Positions 7,523 through 40,054 of a DNA stretch of 41,493 bases are shown here, in pieces. The stretch is from contig JBKQQQ010001039.1 in NCBI GenBank assembly GCA_052144275.1, positions 1 to 41,493 on the forward strand, in the 5' to 3' direction. Positions within the stretch are counted from its first letter, which is position 1; the number at the start of each line of letters is the position of its first letter. The position numbers and the translations under genes are program-made. The notes below the pieces were generated by a model. It did not search any database. It worked only from the letters and a program-made list of their open reading frames with translations, and was not told where the DNA came from. This stretch comes from Streptosporangiaceae bacterium. Its GTDB lineage: Bacteria; Actinomycetota; Actinomycetes; Streptosporangiales; Streptosporangiaceae.

Positions 7523-7591
7523 CGCGGCCTCCTTCCCAGCTCTCCATAGATAGGTTACCTACCTATGCTCGTATGGGTAGGATACCTGCAT

Positions 7592-8490: not shown

Positions 8491-8494
8491 CACC

Positions 8495-11665: not shown

Positions 11666-11702
11666 GGGTCCTCCATGCGGCGAGTGGATCGGCTGTCCGT
11701 CT

Positions 11703-11737: not shown

Positions 11738-11748
11738 CGGGATCGGGG

Positions 11749-12426: not shown

Positions 12427-12978
12427 CAGCCGCGGCCAGCAGCCGCCGGGCACCGGAAGACCGCAGCGCCTGGGACAGTGACCTCATGTCCCGCGAGCAG
12501 CAGCCAGCCGGCCAGGCCGCGGCCCGGCAGCCCCCCGGCGGGGCGCCCGCGTGACCCCGCCGCCGCGGATCCGGTGGTCGTCGACGGCGGCGACCGCGCC
12601 TGCGTGCGGCTGCTCCGGGAGCTGCGGGCACGCACCGCCGAAGTGCCTGGGGAATGGCCCGCCGCCGCCAGCTGCGCCGGCCGCCGTGGCGGGCGGCGCG
12701 GTTTCTCGCCCGCCGCCAGCTGCGCGCCCTCGGCGGAAGGCATGGCCGGGTGAGGCTGCACGGGGCGCTGTTCACCCCTGGGCGGTCCAGGGCAGCTGGC
12801 ATGCCGGCCTGTTCCCTTGAGGCGCTCTGGCGGCGGGTCTGTCCCGCCACCGGCGCGTTCCAGGTCCTTGCCGTCGAGAAGGCAGCGTGATGACAGCCGC
12901 CGGGCGCGCGGGGACTCCGCCGGGCCCGCGGCAGCACGGAAACCGCAGGTATGCGGACGAGAACGGAGGCTTGGCCTG

Positions 12979-15877: not shown

Positions 15878-15881
15878 CGGG

Positions 15882-16604: not shown

Positions 16605-16679
16605 CGGCTAGAGCAGGTAACTGGGCAAGCCCCAGCTGGCGTCCGGGGAACGCGCCGGACAGCCACTGCTGGGGACGGA

Positions 16680-21730: not shown

Positions 21731-24070
21731 ATGACGGCCATCGCGGGCGAGCGTCGTTCGGCCGAGCTGGCGATCGGCGGGATGACCTGCGCGTCATGCG
21801 CGGCGCGGATCGAGAAGAAGCTAAACAAGATGGACGGAGTCACCGCGGCCGTGAACTTCGCCACCGAGAAGGCGTCGGTCAGCTTCCCCCCCGTGGTCAG
21901 CCCGGAAGACCTGATCTCGGTCGTCGAGCAGGCCGGCTATACGGCCGCGTTGCCTGTTCCGCGGGCAGCGGAGTCCAGGCCGGCGGCTGAGCCGGATGAG
22001 ACGGCCGGGCTGCGGCAGCGGCTGCTCGTCTCGCTGATCCTGGCGGTGCCGGTCGTGGTGCTGGCGATGGTGCCAGCGCTGCAGTTCCGTAACTGGCAAT
22101 GGCTGTCGCTGGCGCTGGCCGCGCCGGTGGCGGTATGGGGGGCGTGGCCGTTCCACCGGGCAGCGCTGGTCAACGCGCGGCACCGCGCCGCTACCATGGA
22201 CACCCTGATCTCGGCCGGCGTGACCGCCGCGTTCGCCTGGTCGGTGTACGCGCTGTTGTTCACCGGCGCGGGCATGCCAGGGATGCGGATGAGCTTCACC
22301 ATGCTGGCGCAGCACGCCGGGACATCTGGCATTTACCTGGACGCGGCCGCGGGGGTGACCGTGCTGATCCTGCTGGGCCGCTACCTCGAGGCCCGCGCCA
22401 AGCGGCGCTCCGGCGCGGCGCTGCGGGCGCTGGCATCCCTGGGTGCCAAGGACGCCGCGGTGCTGCGCGATGGCCGGGAGATCCGGGTCCCGGCGGAGCA
22501 ACTGGCGGCCGGGGACCTGTTCGTGGTCCGCCCGGGGGAGAAGATCGCCGCCGACGGGGTAGTGGAGTCCGGCAGTTCCGCGGTGGACACCTCGATGCTG
22601 ACCGGCGAGCCGGTCCCCGCGGAAGTGACGGCGGGAGACGCGGTGACCGGCGGGTGCGTGAACACCAGCGGCCGGCTCGTGGTCCGCGCCACCCGGGTCG
22701 GCGCCGATACCCAGCTCGCCCAGATCACCCGCCTGGTGGAGCAGGCACAGGCAGGCAAGGCGCCGGTGCAGCGGCTCGCCGACCGGGTCTCCGCGATCTT
22801 CGTCCCGGTCGTCATCGGCATCGCGGTGGCGACCCTGGCCGCCTGGCTGGTCACCGGGCAGGGCCCAGGCGCGGCGTTCACCGCCGCGGTCGCCGTCCTG
22901 ATCATCGCCTGCCCATGCGCGATGGGCCTGGCCACCCCGACCGCGATCCTGGTGGGTACCGGCCGGGGCGCCCAGCTCGGCATCCTGATCAAGGGACCGG
23001 AGGTGCTGGAGTCCACCCGGACGATCGACACCATCGTGCTGGACAAGACCGGCACGATCACCACCGGGACGATGTCGCTCGCCGACGCTGCCGCCGCGCC
23101 GGGCGAGGACGTGAGCGAACTGCTGCGGCTGGCCGGCGCCGCCGAGGACCCCTCGGGCCACCCCATCGCCGCTGCGATCGCCGACGGCGCACGGGCCCGG
23201 CTCGGCTCCGGCCTGCCGGACACCGAGGAGTTCGCCAGCCTGCACGGTCTCGGCATCACCGCCGTGGTCGGCGGGCGCGCGGTCGCCGTCGGACGGGCTT
23301 CCTGGGTGGAGGGCGAATGGGCGCAGCGCATCCCGCCCGCGCTAGCGGACCGCGCGGCGCAAGCCGAAGCGGCCGGGCAGACCGCGGTGTTCGCCGGCTG
23401 GGACGGCCGCGTCCGCGGCCTGCTGGTCATCGCCGACACGGTCAAGCCCACCTCCGCCGAGGCGATCACGCGGCTGCGCGGGATGGGGCTGCGCCCGGTG
23501 CTGCTGACCGGCGACAACGAGCGTGCCGCCCGCGCCGTGGCCGGCCAGGTGGGCATCGGTGAGGTGATCGCCGGCGTCCTGCCCGCCGGCAAGGCCGCGG
23601 TCATCAAGGAACTGCAGGCGGCCGGGCGGGTCGTGGCCATGGCCGGGGACGGGGTCAACGACGCCGCCGCGCTCGCCCAGGCTGACCTCGGCCTGGCCAT
23701 GGGTACCGGCACCGACGCCGCGATCGAGGCCTCCGACCTCACCCTGGTCCGCGGCGACCTGCGCGCCGTCCCGGATGCCATCTTGCTGTCGCGCCGCACC
23801 CTGCGCACGATCAAGGGCAACCTGTTCTGGGCCTTCGCCTATAACACCGCCGCGATCCCGCTTGCCGCGCTGGGATTCCTCAGCCCGCTGATCGCCGGGG
23901 CCGCCATGGCGTTCAGTTCGGTGTTCGTGGTCACCAACAGCCTGCGGCTGCGCCGCTTCTGCCCGCCGCCAGCCCGTCCGCCCGCATCTGACCAGGGACG
24001 CTGGCATGGGCGTGGCGACCCGGGGCCCGTCGCCGCCGCCGGAGGCATTTGGGGAGCGGCCGGGCTATGA
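21731..24070 (+). CDS. copA: copper-translocating P1B-type ATPase
   Basis: The N-terminal HMA domain has [15 protein letters not shown]. The TM6 CPC motif ([13 protein letters not shown]), DKTGTIT, the TGEP-type loop (MLTGEP) and [10 protein letters not shown] are also present. Confidence 0.95.
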
Positions 24071-24286: not shown

Positions 24287-25201
24287 TCACGCCAGCCCGG
24301 GGACGCTGCGGCACAGGGTGTAAATCGCCACCGCGACGAGCAGCGTGGTGAATGCGGCGGTCAGACGGGACGCATCGACCCGGGAGGCGATCCGGTTGCC
24401 GGCCAGTGCGCCGGCGAGCGCGGCCAGCGTGAACACGCCGAGCAGCGGCCAGTCCAGATGGACATGGCCGCCGAGGCGGGCGGCCAGCGCGGCGGCGCTG
24501 TTGATCGCGATGACCAGCAGCGAGGTGCCGACCGCGGCCGGCATCGCGAAGCCGAGCGCGAGCACCAGCGCCGGGACGATGACGAACCCGCCGCCCACGC
24601 CGAAGAACCCCGTCAGCAGCCCGACACCCATGGCAGCAACGACAATCTTCAGGCCCTTGGCGGCGTCCGGGCCGCGCAGCCGCTGCCAGCCGCCAGGCCC
24701 GGCCTGTGGCCGGGCCGCGAGCGCCGGCCTGTCCAGCGTGAGGGCTACCGGCCTGCCGCCACGGTCTGCGGCGGCCACGTCACCTGGCGGGATGGCGGGA
24801 GGAGCCGGCGGAACCTGTTCAGCGGGCGTGCGGTCACCGGCCGCGGGTCGCGGTCGGAGCAGCATGACTGCGGCGGCGGCCAGCATGAGCCCGGCGAACA
24901 AGGTGAGCAGCAGGTCCGGCTTGATGCCGGTGGCTAGCCGGGTGCCGGCGTAGGAGCCTGCCACGCCCAGAACCCCGAAGGCGACGCCCTGCGCCAGGCG
25001 GACCCGGCCGGCCCGGTAGTGGACGGCCACGCCCGCCAGCGCGGTGATCCCAACGATGAGCAGCGACCCGGTGGTGGCGGCGCGCGGTGACTGGTGCAGC
25101 AGGTAGACCAGGGCCGGGACGGTCAGGATGGACCCGCCGCCGCCCAGTGCGCCCAGCGACAGGCCGATCAGCAGCCCGGCGGGAATGGCGATGGCCAGCA
25201 T
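24287..25201 (-). CDS. sulfite exporter TauE/SafE-family membrane protein
   Basis: There are two homologous halves, each with the GxGGG motif (LGALGGGGSILTVPAL and FFGVGGGFVIVPAL). They are separated by a long Pro/Ala-rich loop. Confidence 0.85.
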   Translation of the reverse strand: MLAIAIPAGLLIGLSLGALGGGGSILTVPALVYLLHQSPRAATTGSLLIVGITALAGVAVHYRAGRVRLAQGVAFGVLGVAGSYAGTRLATGIKPDLLLTLFAGLMLAAAAVMLLRPRPAAGDRTPAEQVPPAPPAIPPGDVAAADRGGRPVALTLDRPALAARPQAGPGGWQRLRGPDAAKGLKIVVAAMGVGLLTGFFGVGGGFVIVPALVLALGFAMPAAVGTSLLVIAINSAAALAARLGGHVHLDWPLLGVFTLAALAGALAGNRIASRVDASRLTAAFTTLLVAVAIYTLCRSVPGLA

Positions 25202-25218
25202 GCGGAACCTCCTGCTCG

Positions 25219-25234
25219 ATACCCCTGGGGGTAT
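25219..25234. promoter_or_regulatory. CsoR/CstR-type operator ATACCCCTGGGGGTAT (N4 class), site 1
   Basis: This perfect palindrome lies 17 nt upstream of the tauE start codon. It is part of an identical 19-mer repeated at 25278. Confidence 0.6.
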
Positions 25235-25277
25235 CTTTTAGGCGACGAGCCTATCCGGACGCTGTCCGGTACCGCAA

Positions 25278-25293
25278 ATACCCCTGGGGGTAT
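25278..25293. promoter_or_regulatory. CsoR/CstR-type operator ATACCCCTGGGGGTAT (N4 class), site 2
   Basis: The sequence is identical to site 1 and lies 59 bp away in the tauE/PIG-L divergent region. Confidence 0.6.
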
Positions 25294-25500
25294 CTTCGGC
25301 GACCGTGGCTCGCCGGGCGAGCAGGGAACCTGATGAACCGGCGCGCCTCCACGAGGATGGCCGTATGCACTGCGGGTGCCTGGCGCGGCCGGCGTCCGCG
25401 ATGCCAGTCTTGCTCGCAGGGGCTTTGTGCCTGGTAGGGGTCATTGGTCCCCCGGACCCTGGGCGGAGGTCATTAGCCAGGCGGGCCAACCCGGCGTACA

Positions 25501-25516
25501 TTACCCCCGCGGGTAT
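25501..25516. promoter_or_regulatory. CsoR/CstR-type operator TTACCCCCGCGGGTAT (N4 class), site 3
   Basis: The TACCC-CCGC-GGGTA site lies 14 nt upstream of the ATG at 25531. Confidence 0.55.
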
Positions 25517-25530
25517 ACAGGAGACCGGTT

Positions 25531-26261
25531 ATGAATGTGACGCGACTGGTGAAAACAGGTGGCGGGCCGGCTGGCCGGCAGCTGCCGGCCTGGTCCGCTG
25601 CCCTGGTGGTGATCGCCCACCCCGATGACGAGAGCTTCGGGCTGGGCGCGGTGATCGACCAGCTGACGACGGCGGGCACGGCCGTGCACATCCTGTGCTA
25701 CACGCAGGGGAGGCATCCACCCTGAACGAGACCTGCGCCGATCTTCACAGCACCCGGGAGGACGAGCTCCGCCAGGCAGGCGCCGAGCTCGGGGTGGCCA
25801 GCGTCTCCCTGCTGGGCTATCCCGACGGCGGCCTGGCCGGCGTCGCGGCCGGCGAACTGGCCGCACTGGCCGCAGACGCCGCAGCCCGCGGCGCCGCCGA
25901 GGGCCTGCTCGTCTTCGACGACACCGGGATCACCGGCCACCCCGACCATCGCGCCGCCACGGCCGCCGCGGTGCTCGCCGGCCGGCGGGCCAGGCTGCCG
26001 GTCCTGGCGTGGGCGCTGCCCGCCGCCGTCGCCGGCCAGCTCGCGGCCGAGACCGGCCAGGGCTTCGCCGGGCAGCCACCCGGCCTGCTCGACCTGAGCG
26101 TGCGCGTCAGCAGGACCCGGCAGCGGCGGGCCGCCCTGCTGCACGCCAGCCAGATCTCGCCGGCCGCCGTGCTATGGCGGCGGCTGCAACTGCAGGGCGA
26201 CTGCGAGCACCTGCGCTGGCTCGTGCCGCCCGACGATATCGCCGCACCACCGCATCACTGA
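25531..26261 (+). pseudogene. PIG-L/LmbE-family deacetylase (MshB/Mca-like), split by a frameshift in a G-run
   Basis: The N-terminal ORF has the AHPDDESFG motif. It continues in another frame with GEASTLNE...LGYPDGG...TGHPDH. The break is at the GGGG run 25707-25710, and one extra G would restore LCYTQGEAST. Confidence 0.7.
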
Positions 26262-26385
26262 TCACGCCGGTTTCCGCGGTCGTCAGCTTGCCGCCATCCA
26301 CAGCGCCGTGAACACACCGGCTGCCCCACGGCGCCGCCGCCAGGGCAAGCCCTGGTGTACCGGGTCCGCACCCGGCAAGCAGCGC

Positions 26386-28447
<2,062 letters not shown>

Positions 28448-28505
28448 CCGCTACCCATCCAGCAGCGAGCAGCCAACCCCACGACCAGCCAGCCGGAAGG
28501 ATGCC

Positions 28506-28877
28506 ATGGACCTGACGTCGGCGGTGCAGAAGATCCTCAGCAGGCCCTACGGGAAGGTGTCCGCCGCGCAAGCAGCCGCTCTCGCGGACCGCGGCGCGAT
28601 CCTGCTCGACGTCCGCGAACCCCGCGAATGGCAAGCAGGCCACGCGCTGCGGGCACGCCACATCCCGCTGAGCCAGATCCCCCGGCGGGCAGCAGAACTG
28701 CCGGAGCGCCGCGCGGTGGTGACCGTGTGCCGCTCCGGCGCCCGGTCGGCCCGCGCCGCCTCACTGCTCGCCCGGGACGGCCGCGAGGTGTGGAACCTGG
28801 CCGGCGGGATGCACGCCTGGGCACGCGCCGGGCTGCCCGTCGTCGCCAAGGGCGGCGGTCGCGGCCACATCGCCTGA
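28506..28877 (+). CDS. single-domain rhodanese sulfurtransferase
   Basis: LLDVREPREWQAGHALRARHIPL is present, with active-site loop CRSGARS. The ORF is 123 aa. Confidence 0.85.
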   Translation: MDLTSAVQKILSRPYGKVSAAQAAALADRGAILLDVREPREWQAGHALRARHIPLSQIPRRAAELPERRAVVTVCRSGARSARAASLLARDGREVWNLAGGMHAWARAGLPVVAKGGGRGHIA

Positions 28878-29070
28878 GGCGCAGGCGGCCATGCCCGCGC
28901 AGCAGCTGGCAGAACAAGATCTGCGAACACCGGCCAGGTACTGGCCGTACCCGGCAGGAACGGAGAACCCAGGCAGGCTCCGCCTGATACCGCCGAGGTT
29001 GCGGGTTCCGCAGGCGTTCCCGTGCAGATGAGCGCATCCTCCGTTGGTAGGCCACGTTGCGGAGGTTGCC

Positions 29071-30690
29071 ATGGCGTCCCGGCTCAAGCGATCGGTACCG
29101 GTCACGGTGAACGACGTGCTCGACGGGCATGCGGCGCTCGACTTGGAGTGCCTGGATCGTCTCTACCTGCACGGCTACCTGGGCCAGTTGCAGGTCGGCG
29201 GGCAGGTGATCCAGTTCCTGAACCACCGGGGGTACCCGGTGCCATCCCCGGCGTGCCTGCAGCAGATCGGCGATGCCTTCCGCCGCCGGGTCGCCTCGTT
29301 CGCCGCGGCCAATCACCTCCCGGTGGTGACGCTGAAGGCCGCTGACCGCAACATCGACATCATGAAGCCCTACCTGGCTAAGGCCGCGGCCACGGGCCGG
29401 TCGCAGGTCGCGGCGATCGGGGTGGCCCAGGAAACCCAGCGGGTGTTCATCGCCCGCAAGCGCGATACCGACCCGTCCAAGTGCCCGCAGTTCTCCTTCG
29501 ACAAGAAGGACCGCCGGGTCACGGTGTACTACTTCTACCTGTGGGACGCGAGCTTCGGGCCGGCGTTCATCAAGGTCTGCACGTACTGCCCCTGGCCAGT
29601 GAAAATCTGGGTCAACGGGCATGAGTGGGCCAAGCAGCAGGCACGCAAGGCCGGCCTGCCCTTCACCGAGCTGTCCAACGGCTTTGCCTCCTGCGAGAAT
29701 CCCGCCCTGCTGCAGAGGATCTGCGACGCGCTGCAGCCCGGCACGATCACCGTGTTCGTCCAGCGGTGGCTGCACCGGCTGCCGCTGCCGCTCGGGCCCG
29801 CCGATCAGCAGGCCGGCTACTGGTGGGAGTGCTCCATGGCCCAGGTCGAGGTCTCCCGCACCATCGTGTTCACCCAGCCGCGCTATGCCCGGGCCTTCTT
29901 CGACGCCCTGGTCACCGACAACCTCGATCTCGGCCGCCCGGACACCCTGGAGATCATCTTCGACCGGCAGGTCCGGTCCAGCACCGCAGGCGAGTTCAGG
30001 ACCAATGTGATCACCCGCGGCACCGAGGTCACCATCAACGCCTTCTACAAGCACTCGCGCATTAAGCAGTACTTGAAAGACGGCCGCGCCCTGCGGGTGG
30101 AAACCGTCGTGAACGCGCCCGGCGACCCGGGCTGCCAGCGGCGCCTGCATAACCTTGACGAGCTTCAGGCCCGGGCGCGTGCGGTCAACGCCCGCCTGTT
30201 GCACACTGAACGTGCCGGCCAGGCCTGCGTCCTTGCGAATCCAGTCTTCGAGCGGATCGCGCACCCATCCGTGGATGCGGACGGGCGGAGAGCTACAGCC
30301 ATGCGCTTTGGCGACTCTCGGGTCCAGGCCCTGGCCGGCGCCCTGTGCGTTACCTTGTGCGCCGTCACCGGCATCACCAACAGGAGCCTGCGCGCCCTGA
30401 TGACCGGACTGCTCGGCGCTCCCTATTCGATGGCCCAGGCCTCCTACGACCTGGCACGGCTGCGCCGCAACGGCCTGATCACCCGCCGCCCGCACGCCAA
30501 CACCTACGATCTCACCGCCGACGGACTGGCATTCTCCGTCTTCTACACCAAGGTCCACGACCGGGTCCTGGCCCCGCTGTTCGCCGCCGGGCAGCCCCAG
30601 GCCCCGCCCCAGCTCCGCGCCGCTATCAAGACAATCGAACATCACATCGATGAACGTCTCGCCCAGTCAAGGCTGCCTGCGACAGCCTGA
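29071..30690 (+). CDS. uncharacterised ~540-aa protein, paralogue A (C-terminal winged-helix-like domain)
   Basis: ATG 29071 follows GGAGG. GC3 is high. Conserved blocks are shared with 30821-32473 (YYFYLWDASFGPAFIKV...VNGHEW; LRVETVVN; QASYDLARLRRNGLI). No named family recognised. Confidence 0.7.
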   Translation: MASRLKRSVPVTVNDVLDGHAALDLECLDRLYLHGYLGQLQVGGQVIQFLNHRGYPVPSPACLQQIGDAFRRRVASFAAANHLPVVTLKAADRNIDIMKPYLAKAAATGRSQVAAIGVAQETQRVFIARKRDTDPSKCPQFSFDKKDRRVTVYYFYLWDASFGPAFIKVCTYCPWPVKIWVNGHEWAKQQARKAGLPFTELSNGFASCENPALLQRICDALQPGTITVFVQRWLHRLPLPLGPADQQAGYWWECSMAQVEVSRTIVFTQPRYARAFFDALVTDNLDLGRPDTLEIIFDRQVRSSTAGEFRTNVITRGTEVTINAFYKHSRIKQYLKDGRALRVETVVNAPGDPGCQRRLHNLDELQARARAVNARLLHTERAGQACVLANPVFERIAHPSVDADGRRATAMRFGDSRVQALAGALCVTLCAVTGITNRSLRALMTGLLGAPYSMAQASYDLARLRRNGLITRRPHANTYDLTADGLAFSVFYTKVHDRVLAPLFAAGQPQAPPQLRAAIKTIEHHIDERLAQSRLPATA

Positions 30691-30704
30691 CAAACTCAGC
30701 TCAA

Positions 30705-30792
30705 CCGTCGGAGTCCTCGACCCATAGGGTCGCTACGCTCCGTCCGGGACTTCGCCCGGAAGGAGTGGCGCTTCGCGCCGTTCGGCTGACGG
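30705..30792 (+). other. cloverleaf-like structured spacer (7-bp closing stem plus three hairpins)
   Basis: The closing stem pairs 30705-30711 with 30786-30792. The hairpins are 30718-30732 (6 bp), 30743-30760 (6 bp) and 30767-30779 (5 bp). The strand is assumed from the flanking genes. Confidence 0.35.
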
Positions 30793-30820
30793 CTAGCGCG
30801 CAGGCTGGCACGTTTGGCGC

Positions 30821-32473
30821 GTGGCTGATGACTTCTCCGCGCGGTACGGCGATCTGATCAATGGCAGTTATGACTGCGTGGACCGGGTGGTGCTGAACGC
30901 CTGGTTCCCGATGGGGGTGAACCCGGGCGGGTTCCGGACCTGGTGGCGGCGGCTGCACGGCGGCGATGATCAGCTGGATAACACGCACCTGATGCGGATG
31001 GCCGGGCGGTTCGCCCGCCGGGTCAAGGCCTGGGCGGCCGCGAACGGCGTCCCGGTCATCTTCTGCAAGGCCGGGGAGCGTAAGCACCTGATCGCCGAGG
31101 AGTACCTGGAGACTCACGTGGTCACCACAGGGGTGTTCCTGGTCCTGGCGGCCAAGGCGCCGGCCGCGGTATGGAAGGTGCACCGGTCCGCGCGCGGGGT
31201 CATCACGAACCTGGAGAAGAAGAGGGAGTACGTCTACCACTACAGCTTCCACATCATGGACCCGGCGTTCGGGCACCTGGCCATCAAGATGTCCGGGCAC
31301 CCGCCGTTCGGGGCGCAGGTGATGCTCAACGGCCACGAGTACGTCGCGGTCGCCGCGCAGGGGGAGGGCATCGGCTTCACGAAGGAGGGGAACTGTTTTA
31401 CTGAGATCGCGGATCCGCAGCGCCTGGCCCGGGTCGCAGATGCCTGGCCGCGTGACGCGGCTATAGGGCGCCTGGGCCAGGTCTGCGACCGGTGGATCTA
31501 TTCGGCCTGCCTGTGCTTCGGCCTGGACCTGGCCGAGCAGCAGGCCAGCGGGTTCTGCTACGCCTACTCGGTCTACCAGGCCGAGTATTCCCGGAACCTG
31601 CTGTTCCGATCTGGGGCGCAGATGGAGAAGCTGTTCGACCGGATCCTCGACCGGACCCGGTCCCGGCTGGACATCCCAGCGCTGCGGACCCTGTTCGGCC
31701 TCAAGGCCCGGCCCCATCACAACCGCAAGCACGGCCCGCCCGCGCAAGACATCGTGATCGAGAAACCGCAGTACGGCCTGAGCTGGTTCCAGATCCGCTT
31801 CGGGCGGCTCCAGCTGAAGGCCTACACCAAGGGCGAACACGTGCTGCGCTTCGAGGCCACCGTGCACAACACCAAAGAGCTGCGCTGCAGCCGCAGCCTG
31901 GAAAACTTCGCCCAGATCATCACCTTGCTCGCCGAGATGGCGGACCGGTTCGCCACCACGCTAGATTGCGCCGACATCGGCTTCCTGCCCGACGGGGTGC
32001 TGGATGAACTGCCGCTGCCCGCCCAGACCGGGACCGGCACGATCGCCGGGGTCGACCTGAACAAGCCGCGGATCCGGGCCGCCCTGTCTGCGGCGCTCGC
32101 CCTGGCCCCGGCACCTGGCGGGTTCACCGTCGCCGAGCACGCCGCCAAGGTCCGCACGATGGCCGGGCACGACGGCTACACCACCCGGCAGGCCGCCTAC
32201 GACCTGCGCAAGCTCCGCGGCAAGCAGCTCATCGATAAACCCGGCAGGACCCGCCGCTACCACGTCCCGCCGGACGGTGCCCGCACCATCGCCGCGCTGC
32301 TTACACTCCGCGATCACGTCATCGCGCCCATCCTGGCCGGGGTCCGCAGCCCCCGCATGGGCCGCAAGCCCAAGATCTGGACCGCCGTCGACCGCGACTA
32401 CGAGACCCTGCGCATCGGCATGCATACCCTGTTCCAGCACGTCGGCATAGACACGCTCCCCGCAGCCGCATAG
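30821..32473 (+). CDS. uncharacterised ~550-aa protein, paralogue B (C-terminal winged-helix-like domain)
   Basis: The ORF starts at GTG 30821. Blocks are shared with paralogue A (YHYSFHIMDPAFGHLAIKM...LNGHEY; LRFEATVHN; QAAYDLRKLRGKQLI). Confidence 0.7.
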   Translation: MADDFSARYGDLINGSYDCVDRVVLNAWFPMGVNPGGFRTWWRRLHGGDDQLDNTHLMRMAGRFARRVKAWAAANGVPVIFCKAGERKHLIAEEYLETHVVTTGVFLVLAAKAPAAVWKVHRSARGVITNLEKKREYVYHYSFHIMDPAFGHLAIKMSGHPPFGAQVMLNGHEYVAVAAQGEGIGFTKEGNCFTEIADPQRLARVADAWPRDAAIGRLGQVCDRWIYSACLCFGLDLAEQQASGFCYAYSVYQAEYSRNLLFRSGAQMEKLFDRILDRTRSRLDIPALRTLFGLKARPHHNRKHGPPAQDIVIEKPQYGLSWFQIRFGRLQLKAYTKGEHVLRFEATVHNTKELRCSRSLENFAQIITLLAEMADRFATTLDCADIGFLPDGVLDELPLPAQTGTGTIAGVDLNKPRIRAALSAALALAPAPGGFTVAEHAAKVRTMAGHDGYTTRQAAYDLRKLRGKQLIDKPGRTRRYHVPPDGARTIAALLTLRDHVIAPILAGVRSPRMGRKPKIWTAVDRDYETLRIGMHTLFQHVGIDTLPAAA

Positions 32474-32509
32474 ACAACATTTTGTCGATCAGAAAATGCA
32501 AGCTCCTAG

Positions 32510-32626
32510 ATGTGCAGTCCCGTCGTCTGTGATCGCTGCAAGAAGATCACCTGGGCCGGCTGCGGCGCCCACGCCGAGCAGGTCCTGGCCAGCGTCCCGG
32601 CGGAGAAACGATGCACCTGCGCCTGA
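32510..32626 (+). CDS. 38-aa Cys-rich protein (not in the ORF track)
   Basis: The ORF reads MCSPVVCDRCKKITWAGCGAHAEQVLASVPAEKRCTCA. It has six Cys and high GC3, and resembles small conserved actinobacterial Cys-rich proteins I recall. It is preceded by the AT-rich hairpin GACAA-catt-TTGTC (32473-32486). Confidence 0.5.
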   Translation: MCSPVVCDRCKKITWAGCGAHAEQVLASVPAEKRCTCA

Positions 32627-32932
32627 CTGGCCGCCGGGCCGGGCTGGCCTGAACACCGGGTGCTTCCCGCACGTACCGGCGATGGTCGCCGGATGCCGGG
32701 ACTTTCGTCGGTGACGGCCGCGCCCCGGGCGCACGGGACCGGTGATGCATGGATTCGGTGCCGGTGACCCTCACGGCCGGCCTGCCCCCGCCCGCTGATC
32801 CGGCCGCGCTGCCGGCCGGGACGGCCAAGTGCGCACCGTGCGGCCGCGCCAGCCGCCTACCTCGGCCGCGAACTTGCAAGGGCCGGGCACACGCCGCCCG
32901 CCGGCACCCGCTACCAGCAAGACGCCGCGCTC

Positions 32933-33096
32933 GGCTAACCCGAAGTTCCCCCCAAGCCGATGAGTCCACGTGTTTGCGCAGCTGGTAGCGCCCTTGATCG
33001 CGGAAATTACATGTCTACGTAGTCATGAGCTGAGGTTGTTTCTCCTGGTCAAGGCCCATGTGGGCTCGCCGCCAGGGGGAACTACGGGCTAACCCG
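32933..33096. repeat. MITE-like unit: ~10-bp direct repeats flanking a 144-bp lower-GC core with 9-bp terminal inverted repeats
   Basis: GGCTAACCCG occurs at 32933-32942 and 33087-33096. AGTTCCCCC (32944-32952) is complementary to GGGGGAACT (33075-33083). The interior is AT-richer and has the hairpin GCGC-AGCTGGTA-GCGC (32976-32991). Confidence 0.35.
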
Positions 33097-33157
33097 CCAG
33101 GGCGCGGGGGCCTGAAGTGGCTCAGGCCTGCGGCGGGAAAGCGTCGCACGCGGCTGC

Positions 33158-33373
33158 CTACAGGAGCAGGGCGGCGGCGAGCTGGCGTGCCTCACCGGCG
33201 GTGAGCCCGGCCCAGGTGCCGTCCCCGGTCCCGGAAGGGGCGCTGACGCCGAGGCTGACGCGCTGCGCCGGGTGCGGGGCCCCGCCGAGGATGAGATGCC
33301 CTACCTGGATCTCCCGGCCGCAGGTGGTCCGGAAGCTGACGTGATGGCGGACGCCTGATGTGCTGGTGTCCAT
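33158..33373 (-). CDS. hypothetical 71-aa protein
   Basis: GC3 is high on this strand. It lies 55 nt downstream of the DUF302 gene in the same orientation. The C-terminal segment reads WAGLTAGEARQLAAALL. No family recognised. Confidence 0.45.
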   Translation of the reverse strand: MDTSTSGVRHHVSFRTTCGREIQVGHLILGGAPHPAQRVSLGVSAPSGTGDGTWAGLTAGEARQLAAALLL

Positions 33374-33428
33374 GGCATGCCTCCGCGCAATCGCAGGATG
33401 TGCCGGGCCGGAGCGAGGCCCGGCGACG

Positions 33429-33818
33429 TCATGAGGCGAGCGCGGCGAGGGCGGCGCCGAGGCGCCGCGCCACCTCGTCAGCGACCGGCTTCAGCTCGGG
33501 CCGTCCGGTCAGGGCGACCATGACCTGCGGGTCGAGCGCCTCCACGACGGTGCCGCCCCCCGCAGCGCGGACGACGACATTGCAGGGCAGCAGCAACCCG
33601 ATGCTCCGGTCGACCTCAAGTGCCTGATGGGCGAACGGCGGGTTGCAGGCGCCCAGGATGACGTAGTCCTCGATCTGCTCCCCGAGCTTGTCCCGCAGGG
33701 TGGCAGTCACATCGATCTCGGTGAGCACGCCGAACCCCTGGCCCTCCAGGGCATCGCGCACCCGGGCGACCGCGTCGGGGAACGGGAGATCCACGGTGAT
33801 GCTGGTGCCGTAGCTCAC
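33429..33818 (-). CDS. DUF302-domain protein
   Basis: FPDAVARVRDALEGQGFGVLTEIDVTATLRDKLG...ILGACNPPFAHQAL...LLPCNVVV is the DUF302 signature. The start forms a GTGA overlap with the trx stop. Confidence 0.8.
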   Translation of the reverse strand: MSYGTSITVDLPFPDAVARVRDALEGQGFGVLTEIDVTATLRDKLGEQIEDYVILGACNPPFAHQALEVDRSIGLLLPCNVVVRAAGGGTVVEALDPQVMVALTGRPELKPVADEVARRLGAALAALAS

Positions 33819-34192
33819 CGGTCCGCCCCTTGCGCTTCCTGCACGGCGAGCTTGCCGCGGACCTCGTCCATGTCCAGGTCGCGGACGGCCTGGATGAGCT
33901 GCTCCAGCGCCGCGGCCGGAAGCGCGCCAGGCTGGGAGAACACCAGGATGCCGTCGCGGAACACCATCAGGGTCGGGATGGAGCTGATCCGCGCGGCGGC
34001 GGACAGCTCGGGCTGGTCCTCGGTGTCGATCTTGCCGAACGTGATGTCCGGGTGCTGCCTGCTCGCGGCCTGGAACACCGGCGCGAACATCCGGCACGGC
34101 CCGCACCAGGAAGCCCACCAGTCGACCAGGGTGATCCCCGGCTGGGTGACCGTCTCCTCGAACGTCTCCTTGGTCAGTGCGATGGCGCTCAT
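33815..34192 (-). CDS. thioredoxin
   Basis: The WCGPC active site lies in LVDWWASWCGPCRMFAP, and the fold length is typical. ATG 34192 follows GGGAG. Confidence 0.9.
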   Translation of the reverse strand: MSAIALTKETFEETVTQPGITLVDWWASWCGPCRMFAPVFQAASRQHPDITFGKIDTEDQPELSAAARISSIPTLMVFRDGILVFSQPGALPAAALEQLIQAVRDLDMDEVRGKLAVQEAQGADR

Positions 34193-34221
34193 GATCTCCC
34201 TCACTTCCCGACAGGCCTAAC

Positions 34222-34237
34222 ATACCCCACCGGGTAT
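34222..34237. promoter_or_regulatory. CsoR/CstR-type operator ATACCCCACCGGGTAT (N4 class), site 7
   Basis: The site lies 29 nt upstream of the thioredoxin start codon. Confidence 0.55.
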
Positions 34238-34356
34238 AACAGGCGGCGCTGGGCGTTATTCCGCGCCTGGATCCCAGCTGGCATATCCCTGTCCCGCAGA
34301 GCTGGATTGGCCCGGACCGCCGGATCCGTCAGGGCTCTCAGGCCATGCGCGGCTAG

Positions 34357-35324
34357 GGCGTGTCCCGTGGATCTTCGAAGCGGGGTCGTGTAGACCAGTG
34401 CGATGCCTGACCGACTGAATCGTCATGACCTGACCGATGAGGAATGGGAGCGCCTTCGGGTGCTCCTGCCGTCCGGCCCGCAGCAGCGCGGCGGCCGCTG
34501 GGCCGATCACCGGACGGTGATCAACGGGATCTTCTTCCGGACCCGGGCGGGCTGCCCGTGGCGGGACCTGCCCGAGGGCTTCGGGAACTGGAAGACCGTC
34601 TATAACCGGCATCGCCGCTGGTCCCTGGACGGGGCCTGGGAGCAGATCCTGGACGGGCTCCGGGCCGGGTGCGACGAGGCTGAGGGCAGGGACTGGACAG
34701 TGAGCGCGGACTCCACCGTCGCCCGGGCCCATCAGCACGCGGCCGGGGCCCGCCGCGTCCCGGCCGCTGATGATCTCACGGGGGGCTCTGGCGAATGACA
34801 GGAAATCGGGCCGGGAGGCGATCGGCCGGTCCCGGGGCGGGCTGACGACCAAGATCCACCTGGCCGCTGACCTGCGCTGCCGCCCCATCGCGCGGCTGAC
34901 CAGCTGCGGCCAGCATGGTGACTCCCCGCGGTTCGTCCCGCTGATGGATGCGATCCGGATCCGCCGCCGCGGGAAAGGACGGCCACGCCGGCGGCCCGGC
35001 CGGGCAATGGCGGATAAGGCGTATTCCTCCCGCGCGAACCGCGCCTGGCTGCGCCAGCACGGCATCCAGGCGGTCATCCCGGTCAAGGAGGACCAGAAGA
35101 AGCACCGCCGTGACCGGGGCCGGGCCGGCGGCCGCCCGCCGGCCTTCGACGCCTCCTGGTACAAAAAGCGCAACACCGTGGAGCGCTGCTTCAGCAAGCT
35201 CAAGCAGTTCCGGGCGGTGGCCACCCGTTATGACAAGCGTGAGCGGATTTACCAGGGCACCATCGACGTGGCCTCGATCAGCATCTGGCTGCGCGACCCC
35301 GTCCCATGATCCACGGGACACGAC
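34357..35324 (+). mobile_element. IS5-family insertion sequence (IS427-like, two-frame transposase)
   Basis: Perfect 15-bp terminal inverted repeats (CGTGTCCCGTGGATC) lie at 34359-34373 and 35308-35322. The element is flanked by CTAG at 34353-34356 and 35325-35328, a candidate target duplication. It encodes a DDE transposase. Confidence 0.85.
34403..35309 (+). CDS. IS5-family transposase (orfA 34403-34798 and orfB 34770-35309, joined by a frameshift)
   Basis: orfA has the DUF4096-type N-terminus (LTDEEWERLRVLLP...GRPWADHR-like, NGIFFRTRAGCPWRDLP). orfB has the DDE C-terminus (GRSRGGLTTKIHLAAD, ADKAYSS, YKKRNTVERCFSKLKQFRAVATRYDK). The 29-nt overlap contains a G6 run (34780-34785). orfB is +1 relative to orfA. 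Confidence 0.85.
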
Positions 35325-37085
35325 CTAGGTGCCTGGTAACCCGGCTGCGCGGGCTGGCTGAAGGCAAGCTGGGGGAAGCGGGAACCAGCGCAGCGCCTCG
35401 AAATCCGGTGGCAGCCCGGTGGGCCCGTCATCCAGGTGCGTCGGCCGGGCGGCCAGGATGTGCCGGGCCTGCCGCAGGTAGCCGGGGAACGCCTCCTCGC
35501 CGGCGCGGCCATGCTGCCGGGGGTAATTCATCTCGCCGTCCGGGCCGTAGCGGATGTCGGACAGGGTAACCTGCGGCCGGGGCGGCCCGGCGGCGTGCCG
35601 CCACAGGCCCGTGCGCGGGTCAAACCGGTAGTCCGGAAGCAGGCGGTATCCGTTGGCGGCGATCAGCTCGACAGCGGCGGCGATGTAGTCTGCGGTGGCC
35701 GGGGAGATGAAGTAGTTGAGGTTCACCCTGGTCCAGCCGGGCTTGACCCCGTCGCAGCCGTGCCCGACCTCCTCGCGCAGCGCATGGGAGCGGGCCGGGC
35801 CGATGGCCAGCAGCCGGTGCCCGTACGGGCCGGCGCACGAGCAGCCGCCGCGGGCCTGGATGCCGAACAAGTCGTTGAGCACCGCGACGACGAAATTATG
35901 GTGCAGGTACCGGGTGCCATGGCGGATGCGGAACGAGACGATCGACAGCCGCGCCGCCTGGTGGCTGCCGAGCACCTCGATGCCAGGGGTGCCGGCCCAG
36001 CGGCGCAGCACGTGCCGCCACAGCTGTTCCTCGCGGGCGGCGATCAGGTCGGTGCCGACCGCCTGCTTGAGCGCGAAGACCAGGCCGGCACGGATGGACT
36101 CGATGATCGCGGGGGTGCCGCCCTCCTCGCGCGCGACCGGGTCGTCGAGATACCGGTGGCCGATGGGGTCGACGAACGCCACGGTTCCCCCGCCCGGGGC
36201 GGTCGGCACGGTGTTGCGCCCCAGTTCACGACGCACGACCAGGACGCCGGGTGTCTGCGGGCCGCCGGGGAACTTGTGCGGGGAGAGAAACAGCGCGTCC
36301 TTGTGGTCGCCGGCGCCCGGGCGAGACTCTGCGACGCGGATGGGAAGGTACGGCCCGGCGGCGGCGTAGTCCCAGAACGACAGCGCGCCGTGGGCGTGCA
36401 GCAGCGCGGCGATCGCGTCGGCGTCGGTCAGGATGCCCGTCACGTTGGAGGCGGCGGAGAAGCTGCCGATGAGCAGCGGGCGCTTGGCGTACCGGGCCAG
36501 CTGGCGTTGCAGGTCGGCCAGGTCGATGTGGCCGTCGGCGTCCTCGCCGATGACCACCACCTCGGCGATGGTCTCGCGCCAGGGCAGCTCGTTGGAGTGA
36601 TGCTCGTACGGGCCGACGAACACCACCGGCCGTTCGGCCTCCGGGATGCTCCGGCTGAGCTCATATCGTTCGTCCAGCCCGGCCGGGATGCGCAGCTCCA
36701 AGATGCCGATGAGCTTGTTCACCGCGGCGGTCGCGCCGGACCCGCAGAAGATCACCAGGTCGTCGCCGGTGCCGCCGACCGCGTCGCGGATGATCCGCCG
36801 GGCGTCCTCGCGCAGCCGGGTGGTGGCCAGGCCGGTGCCGGAGCTTTCGGTGTGGGTGTTGGCGTACCGGAGCAGGACCTCCTGGCGGATGAAGTCCTCG
36901 ATGAAGTCCAGCGACCGGCCCGAGGCCGTGTAGTCGGCGTAGGTGACCCGGCGGGGCCCGAACGGGCCGTCCATCAGTTCGCCCTCGCCGAGGATCCCCC
37001 GACGGATCCGCTCCACCAGCGGTGACGTCAGCACCCCGGTAGGAGCCCGTGTCTCCGGCCAGTCCGGCGTGAGTCCAGTAGCCAT
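35325..37085 (-). CDS. class-V aminotransferase-fold PLP enzyme (cysteine-desulfurase-like, long form)
   Basis: YADYTASGRSL, EHHSNELPW, the SPHKFPGGPQTPG (PLP-Lys) region and ARGGCSCAGPYGH are present. The protein is about 586 aa. The stop TAG lies inside the CTAG flanking the IS. Confidence 0.8.
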   Translation of the reverse strand: MATGLTPDWPETRAPTGVLTSPLVERIRRGILGEGELMDGPFGPRRVTYADYTASGRSLDFIEDFIRQEVLLRYANTHTESSGTGLATTRLREDARRIIRDAVGGTGDDLVIFCGSGATAAVNKLIGILELRIPAGLDERYELSRSIPEAERPVVFVGPYEHHSNELPWRETIAEVVVIGEDADGHIDLADLQRQLARYAKRPLLIGSFSAASNVTGILTDADAIAALLHAHGALSFWDYAAAGPYLPIRVAESRPGAGDHKDALFLSPHKFPGGPQTPGVLVVRRELGRNTVPTAPGGGTVAFVDPIGHRYLDDPVAREEGGTPAIIESIRAGLVFALKQAVGTDLIAAREEQLWRHVLRRWAGTPGIEVLGSHQAARLSIVSFRIRHGTRYLHHNFVVAVLNDLFGIQARGGCSCAGPYGHRLLAIGPARSHALREEVGHGCDGVKPGWTRVNLNYFISPATADYIAAAVELIAANGYRLLPDYRFDPRTGLWRHAAGPPRPQVTLSDIRYGPDGEMNYPRQHGRAGEEAFPGYLRQARHILAARPTHLDDGPTGLPPDFEALRWFPLPPACLQPARAAGLPGT

Positions 37086-37117
37086 CACGCCCTCCCTTCT
37101 CCGAGCCTACTTCCAAT

Positions 37118-37133
37118 ATACCCTCGGGGGTAT
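37118..37133. promoter_or_regulatory. CsoR/CstR-type operator ATACCCTCGGGGGTAT (N4 class), site 8
   Basis: The site lies 32 nt upstream of the class-V PLP enzyme start codon. Confidence 0.55.
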
Positions 37134-37200: not shown

Positions 37201-37548
37201 GTGGATGCTGACCGTGGCCGCGATGGCTGGAGCGCGCTGGCGGACGGGACGCGGCGGGCGATTGTGAGTCGCCTGGCCGATGGGCCGTTGCCGGTGGGTG
37301 TGCTGGCCGCGTTGTTGCCGGTGACCCGGTCAGCGGTCTCACAGCACTTGAAGGTGCTCAAGGACGCCGGGCTAGTCAGCGAGCGGGCGGTGGGGACGCG
37401 GCGACTGTACCGGCTGAACCCGGCGGCTGTGGCGGCGCTGCGCGATCAGTTGGACACGTTCTGGCGGCGCGCGCTCAGCGGTTATGCCGATGTTGTCGAG
37501 TCAGGTGTCCCGGAGTCGGGCACTGAGCCTGTGACGGAGGATGGCTGA
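37201..37548 (+). CDS. ArsR/SmtB-family transcriptional regulator
   Basis: ALADGTRRAIVSRLADGPLPVGVLAALLPVTRSAVSQHLKVLKDAGLV is the ArsR wHTH. The ORF starts at GTG 37201. A GCATCC-N11-GGATGC repeat lies just upstream and over the start. Confidence 0.8.
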   Translation: MDADRGRDGWSALADGTRRAIVSRLADGPLPVGVLAALLPVTRSAVSQHLKVLKDAGLVSERAVGTRRLYRLNPAAVAALRDQLDTFWRRALSGYADVVESGVPESGTEPVTEDG

Positions 37549-38061
37549 TGGGTCAGGCTGACGTTCCTGCGGCTGGTTCTGTGGTGTGTCGAGATGTAGT
37601 GGTCGGCGTGCCGATCGCTGCGGCGTTCGAGGCGTTCACTGAACGGTTTGGTGACTTCAAGCCACCGGAGCACAACCTGCTCGGTGCGCCGATCGAGAAG
37701 ACTGTGTTCGAGCCGCGGGTGGGGGGCCACATCTTCGACCGGGCGGTGGACGGCTCGGTGTGTCGGTGGGCGCGGATCCTGGCGTTCGAGCCACCGGACC
37801 GGGTGGTGTTCTCCTGGGACATCAGCCCGCAGTGGCAGATCGAGTCCGATCCGGCGCTGACCAGCGAGGTCGAGGTCCGGTTCGTGGCCGAGGGCCCGGA
37901 CCGCACCTGTCACCCGGGTTGAGCTGGAGCACCGGCACCTGGACAGGCACGGTCCTGGGTGGGAGTCCGTCCGCGACGGCGTCGAGGGCGGTGAGGGTTG
38001 GCCGCTGTACTTGTCCCGTTACCAGGCCGTCGCCGGGTCCCCGGCCGGGAAGGTTGGTTGA
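37548..38061 (+). pseudogene. SRPBCC (AHSA1-like) protein, frameshifted near 37905-37915
   Basis: The N-terminal 124-aa ORF ends shortly after VRFVAEGPDRT. The expected continuation, RVELEHRHLDRHGPGWESVRDGVEGGEGWPLYLSRY, is in the next frame and ends at 38061. Confidence 0.6.
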
Positions 38062-38535
38062 GTGCCTCCAGTCAAGGTGTCCGCGGTCGTGGACCGGCCT
38101 GCCGCGGAGGTGTTCGCCTATGTCACCGATCCAGGCCGTTTCCATGAGTGGCAACAGGGGGTGATCGACGGCCACCTGGAGGCGTCCGCAGACGCTGCCG
38201 ACGGGGGCCGGGGCGTCCCGCGGGTGGGAGCGAAGTGTCTGACCACGCGGCGGATCGGTGGGGCTGACCGGACCGTCACGTCGGTGCTCACCCATGTGGA
38301 CCCGCCGCGGACCTGGGGTGTGCGGGGGATCGACGGCCCGGTCCGGGCGACCGTTGATGTCACGGTGGAACCAGTCACCGAGTCCAGTGCCCGGGTGAGT
38401 ATCGCCGTGGACTTCGCCGGCCACGGCATCGGCCGAGTCCTGGTCCCGCTCATCGTGCGTCCCCAGGCGAGCAAGGAGATGCCGGCGAACATCGCCACGC
38501 TGAAGCAGAGGATCGAGGCCGACTGGCGGGTCTGA
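38062..38535 (+). CDS. SRPBCC-family (polyketide cyclase/dehydrase-like) protein
   Basis: VSAVVDRPAAEVFAYVTDPGRFHEWQQGV ... VEPVTESSARVSIAVDF matches the family. The 157-aa ORF has a GTG start directly after the previous stop. Confidence 0.75.
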   Translation: MPPVKVSAVVDRPAAEVFAYVTDPGRFHEWQQGVIDGHLEASADAADGGRGVPRVGAKCLTTRRIGGADRTVTSVLTHVDPPRTWGVRGIDGPVRATVDVTVEPVTESSARVSIAVDFAGHGIGRVLVPLIVRPQASKEMPANIATLKQRIEADWRV

Positions 38536-39601: not shown

Positions 39602-39667
39602 CGGAGGCAAGTCGATTCCGCCGGTCCCGCCCGCCGGCCGCTCTGACCGCGATCAATGACTATACAG

Positions 39668-39697
39668 AGCTATCATCGTCGTATGGCGATGATAGCT
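39668..39697. promoter_or_regulatory. perfect 11-bp inverted repeat AGCTATCATCG-N8-CGATGATAGCT overlapping the ArsR start codon
   Basis: The repeat was read directly from the sequence. The likely start, ATG 39683, lies in the spacer. Confidence 0.5.
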
Positions 39698-40054
39698 CCT
39701 GATGCCGAAGTCGAGCGGGTGGAGCTTGCCCCGGCTGCGGCCCTGTTCCGATCGCTGGCTGATCCCGCGCGGCTGATGATCGTGCGCCGCCTGGCCAGCG
39801 GCCCGGCGCGGGTGACCGACCTGGTATCCGCGCTGGGGCTGGCGCAGTCGACAGTGTCAAAGCACCTGGCGTGCCTGCGGGACTGCGGGCTGGTGACCTC
39901 GGAGCCCGCCGGGCGGGCCTCGGTGTTCCGGCTGGCCCAGCCCGCGCTGGCCGAGATGCTGGCCGCGGCGCAGACGGTGCTGGCCGCGACGGGCAACGCC
40001 GTCGCCTTGTGCCCAGCCTGGGGAATAGACGCCTGCGGCGGGGAAGTGCCGTGA
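39683..40054 (+). CDS. ArsR/SmtB-family metal sensor, CmtR-like Cys pattern
   Basis: The wHTH has the HLACLRDCGLV motif (Cys-x3-Cys in the recognition helix region, as I recall for CmtR). It also has C-terminal Cys residues (ALCPAWGIDACGG). Confidence 0.75.
   Translation: MAMIAPDAEVERVELAPAAALFRSLADPARLMIVRRLASGPARVTDLVSALGLAQSTVSKHLACLRDCGLVTSEPAGRASVFRLAQPALAEMLAAAQTVLAATGNAVALCPAWGIDACGGEVP

Follow-up and report, generated by a model that had tools for sequence, protein, structure and literature searches.

The window is the whole stretch of DNA that was analysed, 41,493 nucleotides (41.5 kb, 71.6% GC) from a Streptosporangiaceae bacterium. There are a number of genes in it that appear to be headed by copies of a 14-bp palindrome, TACCC-N4-GGGTA, and one of these genes encodes a CsoR-family repressor. 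The others encode a sulfite exporter of the TauE family, a LmbE/PIG-L-family deacetylase-like protein, a PDO-rhodanese, a single-domain rhodanese, a thioredoxin (Trx), a DUF302 protein and a SufS-like class-V enzyme dependent on pyridoxal phosphate (PLP). The palindromes are considered here as candidate operators of the repressor. All of the features are listed in Table 1.

The gene identities in the window were confirmed by Pfam and NCBIfam searches, and most of the assignments made in a preliminary description of this DNA were upheld by them. Thioredoxin and DUF302 had been listed together as trx-DUF302. They are no fusion and are separate genes that are translationally coupled through a GTGA stop/start overlap (33815-33818). 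The repressor had been placed at 26386-26688, and its real open reading frame (ORF) is 26386-26679, with the ATG at 26679. The LmbE-like gene had been given a mycothiol-type deacetylase fold. This is an assignment of fold (PF02585) and not of function, and the gene is frameshifted here. The PDO-rhodanese matched 3TP9, 3R2U, ETHE1 and BpPRF in the PDB, and it starts at the ATG at 27056 with the ribosome-binding site GGAAGGAG. The single-domain rhodanese is probably in one operon with the PDO gene; this gene order recurs in many loci. The thioredoxin gene likely starts at the ATG at 34192, after a GGGAG ribosome-binding site.

The strict palindrome occurs exactly eight times in the window, at 25220, 25279, 25502, 26701, 26950, 27007, 34223 and 37119. 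The mean count expected from dinucleotide shuffles is 0.01, and none of 100 shuffles reached eight. Seven of the sites have the full form ATACCC-N4-GGGTAT, and the exception, at 25501, reads TTACCC. All eight are intergenic, with gaps of 15-92 nt to the nearest start codon. Operators 1 and 2 are identical 19-mers (ATACCCCTGGGGGTATCTT) that lie 59 bp apart. A looser published pattern, TACC-N6-GGTA, returned the identical eight sites and none elsewhere in the window. A search that allowed two mismatches gave only two extra weak matches, at 10795 and 13127. Both of these are within ORFs and were set aside as chance. Thus, the eight palindromes of the preliminary description, its identical pair at tauE, its placement of each site upstream of a start codon and its statement that the window holds no further copies were all reproduced. 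Its coordinates are one lower than those given here because they include the flanking A.

Table 1. Genes, candidate operators and putative promoters in the window.
Feature	Position	Strand	Details
tauE, sulfite exporter family	24287..25201	-	304 aa; Pfam PF01925 E 3.8e-45
Operator 1	25219..25234		ATACCCCTGGGGGTAT; tauE-proximal, 18 nt from tauE ATG
Putative tauE core promoter	25248..25277	-	-35 TTGCGG (25277-25272), 18-nt spacer, -10 TAGGCT (25253-25248)
Operator 2	25278..25293		tauE-distal, 77 nt from tauE start
Operator 3	25501..25516		TTACCCCCGCGGGTAT; 15 nt 5' of LmbE-like ATG
LmbE/PIG-L-family deacetylase-like gene	25531..26261	+	Pfam PF02585; motifs AHPDDE and HPDH present
CsoR-family (CstR-type) repressor	26386..26679	-	97 aa; Cys43, Gly68, Cys72
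Operator 4	26700..26715		21 nt 5' of repressor ATG; putative autoregulation
Operator 5	26949..26964		distal at PDO-rhodanese promoter, 92 nt from ATG 27056
Putative PDO-rhodanese core promoter	26965..26993	+	-35 TTGCGT (26965-26970), 17-nt spacer, -10 TAGAGT (26988-26993)
Operator 6	27006..27021		proximal at PDO-rhodanese, 35 nt from ATG 27056; 57 bp from operator 5
PDO-rhodanese (CstB/ScPDO type)	27056..28447	+	463 aa; MBL domain fused to rhodanese, PF00753 + PF00581
Single-domain rhodanese	28506..28877	+	123 aa, CRSGARS loop; PF00581 E 1.9e-18
DUF302 protein	33429..33818	-	129 aa; PF03625 E 1.5e-24; PDB 1J3M
Thioredoxin (WCGPC)	33815..34204	-	PF00085, TIGR01068
Operator 7	34222..34237		18 nt (GTG 34204) or 30 nt (ATG 34192) 5' of trx
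IS5 element ORF, DUF4096	34403..34798		
IS5 element ORF, DDE transposase	34770..35309		
SufS-like class-V PLP enzyme	35325..37088	-	587 aa; Pfam PF00266
Operator 8	37118..37133		30 nt 5' of PLP gene; 68 nt 5' of divergent ArsR-family gene

The repressor matched Pfam PF02583 (CsoR/DUF156) with an E-value of 7.9e-23 and 81 bits, against a cutoff of 22.8. In a phmmer search of the PDB, its best matches were the Streptococcus pneumoniae CstR structures (7MQ1-3, E 1.7e-11 for 7MQ1), followed by Cu(I)-sensing CsoRs. 7MQ1 is SpCstR, a persulfide sensor (PMC8643695). In the PDB alignments, the Cys pairs of SpCstR and of the Geobacillus thermodenitrificans CsoR (GtCsoR) are matched by Cys43 and Cys72, which are 29 residues apart. 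The counterpart of Gly68 is the Cu-ligand His75 in GtCsoR (RHANHC vs TGLQEC) and the Asn 'wedge' in SpCstR. The two Cys at CsoR spacing and the Gly in place of the Cu-ligand His had already been described, and both were seen again; the alignment with the solved structures was the check for a His at this position (Y), and it gave Gly. These residues are kept among 93 homologues from the fetched loci (C43 in 90, G68 in 90, C72 in 92). The family is large, with 6,911 database clusters at E <1e-10 that are mostly labelled 'CsoR' or 'FrmR family'. Formaldehyde sensing of the FrmR kind was considered and ruled out. The protein does begin with Met-Pro as in FrmR, but its N-terminus is unconserved (homologue matches begin at residues 9-19) and, unlike in FrmR, the second Cys is conserved in the clade. 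Some genomes possess a second CsoR-family paralogue near the first. The one at 4844-5128 in Streptomyces sp. NPDC007264 (L057) has Arg in place of a sensing Cys. Another, at 14193-14384 in L001, is a 39%-identical copy and is presumably the sole homologue among the 93 with His at Y; it would then probably be a genuine Cu-CsoR.

The pairing of repressor and palindrome was explored through a scan for repressor homologues, with one genome per species. This gave 80 loci (L001-L080), all from Actinomycetota. The closest homologues, at 79% identity, are in uncultured soil metagenome-assembled genomes (MAGs). Other loci are in Dactylosporangium, Actinomadura, Streptomyces, Micromonospora, Mycobacterium, Nocardia, Rhodococcus and Amycolatopsis. 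The strict operator is present in 77 of the 80 loci, and its commonest arrangement is directly 5' of the repressor homologue. A gene start lies within 250 nt of 188 of the 199 operator sites in these loci. In addition, 169 of the 199 sites (85%) precede a CsoR-like, PDO-rhodanese, rhodanese, TauE, Trx, DUF302, LmbE or PLP gene. Within 10 kb of the repressor, PDO-rhodanese was found in 46 of the 80 loci, rhodanese in 45, TauE in 39, DUF302 in 26 and Trx in 17. DUF302 is usually directly 3' of the repressor gene, for example in Mycobacterium loci. Fifteen Trx genes in related loci start within 250 nt of an operator. SQR-like genes are present in 12 related loci.

A logo of 265 unique sites reads ATACCCC-N2-GGGGTAT. 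Its flanking A and T, which were unconstrained by the search pattern, are 82% conserved in DNA of about 70% GC. As a background measure, two sites (0.06 per 10 kb) occur in 334 kb of metagenomic contigs that are unrelated and of high GC. This is far sparser than the 2.18 per 10 kb found around close homologues of the PLP gene. The co-occurrence in 77 of 80 loci, the share of known target families, the logo and the sparse background argue that the sites are real operators of this repressor family and are not chance matches or generic repeats. The same pairing and the same targets across Actinomycetota also support the proposal, first made in the preliminary description, that palindromes and repressor define a multi-operon regulon.

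The layout of the sites suggests how the repressor could act. Across all loci, the spacing between neighbouring operators defines a narrow class of about 34-37 bp (27 pairs) and a wide class of about 53-60 bp (16 pairs). Both pairs in the window (25220/25279 and 26950/27007) are of the wide class. In this class, an operator is directly followed by TTGnnn, then 17-18 nt, TAnnnT, 11-14 nt and the second operator. This was seen in nine paired sites in eight loci, which are the window (tauE and pdo), L017, L019, L057, L066, L067, L082 and L085. The narrow class was found at Streptomyces pdo and at mycobacterial trx/tauE regions. The putative tauE promoter is flanked by operators 1 and 2 and scored below 9 of 12 in a consensus scan. 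At tauE and PDO-rhodanese, the operator pair would bracket the core promoter, with one operator abutting the -35 element and the other covering about +1 to +20. The four other units each have a lone operator 15-30 nt from the start codon, and this distance would place it at or just 3' of the likely transcription start. With operators on both sides, a bound repressor would clamp the promoter. Given these positions at core promoters and transcription starts, binding may thus block RNA polymerase.

Much of this arrangement has a counterpart in Streptomyces coelicolor. The operator of SCO0620 (ScCsoR) is ATACC-N6-GGTAT. The protein binds two copies of it in the pdo promoter and a further one between csoR and rhod, and it represses pdo-tauE, rhod and itself (PMC7533328). 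It is freed from DNA by polysulfide in a manner dependent on Cys37/Cys66, and its response to sulfane sulfur was demonstrated in vivo and in vitro (PMC7533328). This four-gene circuit was found in 16 Streptomyces species (Lu et al. 2020, PMC7533328). ScCsoR and Mycobacterium tuberculosis Rv1766 were placed in 'cluster 3' of a sequence similarity network (Fakhoury et al. 2021, PMC8643695). That cluster holds 3,175 largely uncharacterised candidate actinomycete persulfide sensors with an x-C-x-C motif (PMC8643695). A 2024 review repeats the candidate status of this clade and remarks on its missing Asn wedge (PMC11672702). The window repressor has Gly, and not the Asn of the x-C-N-C motif of the firmicute CstR subgroup. 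The Gly at Y fits cluster 3, so the repressor is a member of the actinomycete subgroup and not of the Staphylococcus aureus/S. pneumoniae subgroup.

With the ScCsoR circuit the window shares a repressor clade that has no His and whose two Cys are 29 residues apart. The operator is shared as well: all eight sites fit ATACC-N6-GGTAT, of which ATACCC-N4-GGGTAT is a stricter form. So are the two operators at the pdo promoter and the one at the repressor's own promoter, and, by Pfam, the families of SCO0618 (PDO-rhodanese), SCO0619 (TauE), SCO0620 (repressor) and SCO0621 (rhodanese). The Streptomyces repressor homologues in the loci are 60-73% identical to that of the window, SCO0620 itself being outside the comparison. 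L055, L056 and L072 are among the Streptomyces loci with divergent csoR/rhod, tauE and pdo. From the ScCsoR work and the cluster 3 listing, the repressor, operator and core targets of the window therefore belong to a known system, and no new kind of regulatory system is revealed.

There are also differences from S. coelicolor. The window has six transcription units over 13 kb with inserted elements, whereas S. coelicolor has three. Its tauE has a dual-operator promoter of its own, while in S. coelicolor tauE is co-transcribed with pdo. The operator pairs are spaced 57-59 bp apart, against about 39 bp. Trx-DUF302, the LmbE-like gene and the 587-aa SufS-like enzyme are added in the window. No description of Trx-DUF302, LmbE or SufS-like targets was found in the searchable, non-subscription literature (DUF302 with persulfide, Rv1766, CstR with mycothiol). 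The preliminary description had called the unit undescribed. This does not hold for the core, which is known from S. coelicolor (PMC7533328; PMC8643695), and it does hold for the accessory targets as far as that literature goes.

Firmicute CstRs and their cst operons (S. aureus cstA-cstB-sqr, and the Enterococcus faecalis and S. pneumoniae CstRs) share the CsoR fold, the x-C-x-C motif, a CstB-like PDO-rhodanese fusion and TauE as targets, and a GC-rich palindromic operator. The window repressor differs from firmicute CstRs in having Gly at Y and not the Asn wedge. The window regulon is dispersed over several promoters, whereas the S. aureus cst genes form one divergent operon pair. The low-molecular-weight thiol is presumably mycothiol, and not bacillithiol or CoA as in firmicutes. 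It had been noted that SQR and CstA are missing. There is indeed no SQR-like sequence in the window, and no CstA-like multidomain sulfurtransferase was identified among the genes preceded by operators.

Taken together, it is quite likely that the window represents a CstR-type regulon of a soil actinomycete that responds to persulfide or sulfane sulfur and belongs to the same clade as ScCsoR and Rv1766. The 97-aa repressor would bind the 16-18-bp palindrome ATACCCC-N2-GGGGTAT at six promoter regions. As sulfane sulfur builds up, Cys43 and Cys72 would be persulfidated or cross-linked and the repressor would leave the DNA. This role of the Cys pair is carried over by analogy from ScCsoR and the firmicute CstRs. 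PDO-rhodanese and rhodanese could then convert thiol persulfide to sulfite, TauE could export the sulfite, and thioredoxin with DUF302 would probably reduce protein persulfides. The accessory LmbE-like hydrolase and the long SufS-like PLP enzyme would also be switched on. The repressor would control itself as well, which would provide feedback.

A number of points weigh against this reading. Sulfane sulfur is the presumed inducer of the window repressor by homology; of the persulfide-sensing role given to it earlier, the His loss, the Cys pair and the recurrence of operator and targets have stood, and the inducer is the part that draws on homology. The operators of Cu-sensing CsoRs look similar, so the operator alone gives no inducer specificity. 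A P1B ATPase (21731-24070) and a cupredoxin (18442-19329) are located just upstream, without an operator. The clade is without the Asn wedge of firmicute CstRs, so its reactivity profile may differ. A sigma-70 consensus scan of 25150-27100 called no promoters and no terminators. The promoter elements in Table 1 were read by eye; they are below the scan threshold and draw on cross-locus conservation. The operator scan covers 41 kb of the source genome.

The repressor could possibly be a broader sensor of thiol oxidation by peroxide, disulfide or electrophiles, with a regulon for general thiol-redox repair that includes sulfur-oxidation genes. Thioredoxin is within the window regulon, and the operator of relatives precedes 1-Cys peroxiredoxin, OsmC, AhpD/CMD-like, DsbA-like and CoA-disulfide-reductase-like genes. 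H2O2 reacts fast with CstR proteins in vitro, and because this clade is without the Asn wedge, its oxidant profile has been proposed to be a different one (PMC11672702). Proteins of the thioredoxin and peroxiredoxin type would also fit persulfide reduction, however, and the commonest targets are PDO-rhodanese, rhodanese and TauE (46, 45 and 39 of the 80 loci within 10 kb). ScCsoR, moreover, is known to answer sulfane sulfur in vivo and in vitro (PMC7533328). A broad thiol sensor thus seems unlikely.

Copper is another possible signal. A genuine Cu(I)-sensing CsoR could lie beside sulfur genes by chance and perhaps be tied to the adjacent heavy-metal ATPase. The fold, the Cys positions and the operator type are shared with RicR and with the Cu(I)-CsoRs of M. 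tuberculosis (Rv0967), Streptomyces lividans (4ADZ) and G. thermodenitrificans (4M1P). Source annotations label homologues 'copper-sensing repressor', and the HMA-domain P1B ATPase and the cupredoxin are immediately upstream. In contrast to the Cu(I)-CsoRs and RicR, the window repressor is without the Cu-ligand His, and 90 of 93 homologues have Gly in its place. No gene for copper handling, such as one for copper efflux or a copper chaperone, lies behind any of the eight operators. The neighbouring ATPase and the cupredoxin have no upstream operator even at two mismatches. With the His missing and no operators at these two genes, the copper reading was rejected as very improbable. It is hardly credible either that the palindromes are non-regulatory repeats or are bound by another regulator, with the CsoR-like gene nearby by coincidence. 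The region of 37119 is common to the PLP gene and a divergent ArsR-family gene at 37201, and in L060 a gene of this family is 165 nt away from a site. But ArsR adjacency is not conserved among the PLP-gene homologues, so binding by ArsR is unsupported. The site and the CsoR-like gene co-occur in 77 of 80 loci, mostly with the site directly 5' of that gene, and the site matches the experimentally mapped ScCsoR operator.

The analysis supplies a clear operator model backed by comparison, ATACCCC-N2-GGGGTAT, and a promoter-bracketing layout for the actinomycete CstR clade, which has about 3,000 or more members. The candidates for the regulon extend beyond the four S. coelicolor genes, with Trx and DUF302 found widely and the tightly co-occurring pair of LmbE and the long SufS-like enzyme in one soil clade. 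To our knowledge, DUF302 has no known function. The accessory targets are testable leads on persulfide stress in mycothiol-using bacteria. In relatives, the operator also heads OsmC-PLP operons and an SQR-PLP operon (for example L057 7215-9488). It also precedes genes for AhpD/CMD-like, 1-Cys peroxiredoxin, DsbA-like, CoA-disulfide-reductase-like, MMPL and Zn-alcohol-dehydrogenase proteins; examples of these varied targets among L001-L160 are L095, L103, L104, L112 and L085 (4603-7704). With such varied targets, the content of the regulon differs within the clade far more than the four genes of S. coelicolor would suggest.

The 587-aa PLP enzyme was compared with group II cysteine desulfurases of the SufS type. 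HMMER aligned it with 8D8S and 5B7S over the whole catalytic domain. The PLP lysine is kept (SPHKFPGG; sPHKfpGGP vs sgHKmlGP in these alignments), and so is the catalytic Cys (RGGCSCAGP vs RAGHHCAQP). The catalytic domain, the lysine and the active-site Cys loop are thus shared with 8D8S, 5B7S and Escherichia coli SufS (1JF9). The score against TIGR01979, the NCBIfam model for SufS, is 110 bits, far below the cutoff of 475, and the enzyme is a relative of SufS and not an equivalog. The protein is about 25% longer than the SufS type, with about 150 aa added at its C-terminal end. A search of the PDB with the C-terminal 151 aa gave no meaningful match (best E 0.36). An AlphaFold2 model of the protein from a 25-sequence alignment was unusable, with a mean pLDDT of 40.7, because the homologues in the alignment are all 81-89% identical to it. 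Neither the window nor the related loci examined showed any recognisable suf genes (SufE, SufU, SufBCD). Unlike the SufS type, the enzyme is encoded 3' of a CstR-type operator, and in relatives its gene is paired with LmbE, Trx or OsmC and not with iron-sulfur assembly.

A metagenome scan with the PLP protein gave 80 loci that split cleanly by identity. There are 35 homologues with at least 70% identity, and these lie amid 61 operator sites. Upstream sequence is present for 31 of them, and 20 of the 31 have an operator within 1.5 kb upstream. In nine the operator is direct, and in the remainder a co-directional Trx, OsmC, LmbE or SQR gene is located between the site and the PLP gene. Other regulon families are nearby in 26 of the 35 close loci. 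The other 45 homologues, at 58-68% identity, have two operators, and a single regulon-family gene was found in one locus only. LmbE is the commonest partner of the close PLP genes (19 of 35 loci), and the two are often divergent with an operator between them. The pairing is also present in Amycolatopsis acididurans K13G38 (L019), and in one MAG (L002) the partner of a LmbE-like gene is a class-V enzyme of shorter length. The PLP gene of Streptomyces sp. NPDC007264 (L057) has an OsmC-like gene in front of it, and no homologue of LmbE was detected in that locus. L082 and L090 possess an uninterrupted version of the window cluster, in the order PLP, Trx, DUF302, PDO (-), two sites, repressor, LmbE (-), three sites and TauE.

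The LmbE-like gene of the window is split into two ORFs, 25531-25725 and 25695-26261, that cover positions 1-37 and 33-126 of the PF02585 profile. The halves are in different frames here and in one frame in L002, L019, L082 and L094. When the DNA is aligned with L082 and L094, one nucleotide is missing from the G-run at 25707-25710. Either the homopolymer was misread in sequencing or the gene is a real pseudogene. LmbE and the SufS-like PLP enzyme, frequently accompanied by Trx, DUF302 or OsmC, might tentatively be regarded as a conserved, CstR-controlled accessory module for undescribed mycothiol or cysteine-persulfide chemistry, although we hold this to be somewhat doubtful. One possibility is that the amide of a mycothiol or N-acetylcysteine adduct is cleaved and that sulfur is then removed by the PLP enzyme as persulfide or sulfite. 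The substrates would include oxidised products of mycothiol- or cysteine-derived persulfides, and the hosts would be a soil actinomycete clade related to Streptosporangiaceae. If so, mycothiol-using bacteria would have in this module a branch of reactive-sulfur detoxification that is specific to them.

The cluster in the window has been interrupted. An IS5-family element (34353-35328), with 32-nt terminal inverted repeats that are 81% complementary, is located between the trx operator and the 3' end and stop codon of the PLP gene. In addition, two tandem paralogous ORFs of 548 aa (29044-30690) and 550 aa (30821-32473), with 25% identity (E 8e-32), separate the rhodanese from DUF302-trx. Neither has a Pfam or NCBIfam match. 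Homologues of these two ORFs are 'hypothetical proteins', often in several copies, on Mycobacterium, Rhodococcus and Burkholderia plasmids, and the two are possibly an undescribed mobile-element gene family. The IS5 element, the two inserted ORFs and the LmbE frameshift indicate that the cluster has been rearranged, and it is possibly decaying.

Other genes lie on either side. An ArsR-family regulator (37201-37548, +) and AHSA1/SRPBCC-type genes (37548-37922 and 38062-38535) are divergent from the PLP gene. Since the operator at 37119 lies 68 nt 5' of where ArsR starts, the repressor could control this operon too. Another ArsR-family gene is located at 39647-40054. On the other side are the cupredoxin, which is sulfocyanin-like and on the minus strand, and the HMA-domain P1B ATPase for heavy metals, which is on the plus strand; no regulator of these was identified. 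The left half of the window (563-17528) looks like an integrase-associated stress island. Genes in it encode a tyrosine recombinase (563-1672), a Ser/Thr kinase, a fusion of ArsR and a low-molecular-weight phosphatase (4262-5158), a chromate transporter (5205-6743), a DinB/MDMPI-like protein and a two-rhodanese protein (10301-11731, -). A PLP enzyme of Cys/Met metabolism (12754-14136), an ATP-grasp ligase and a methyltransferase are also present.

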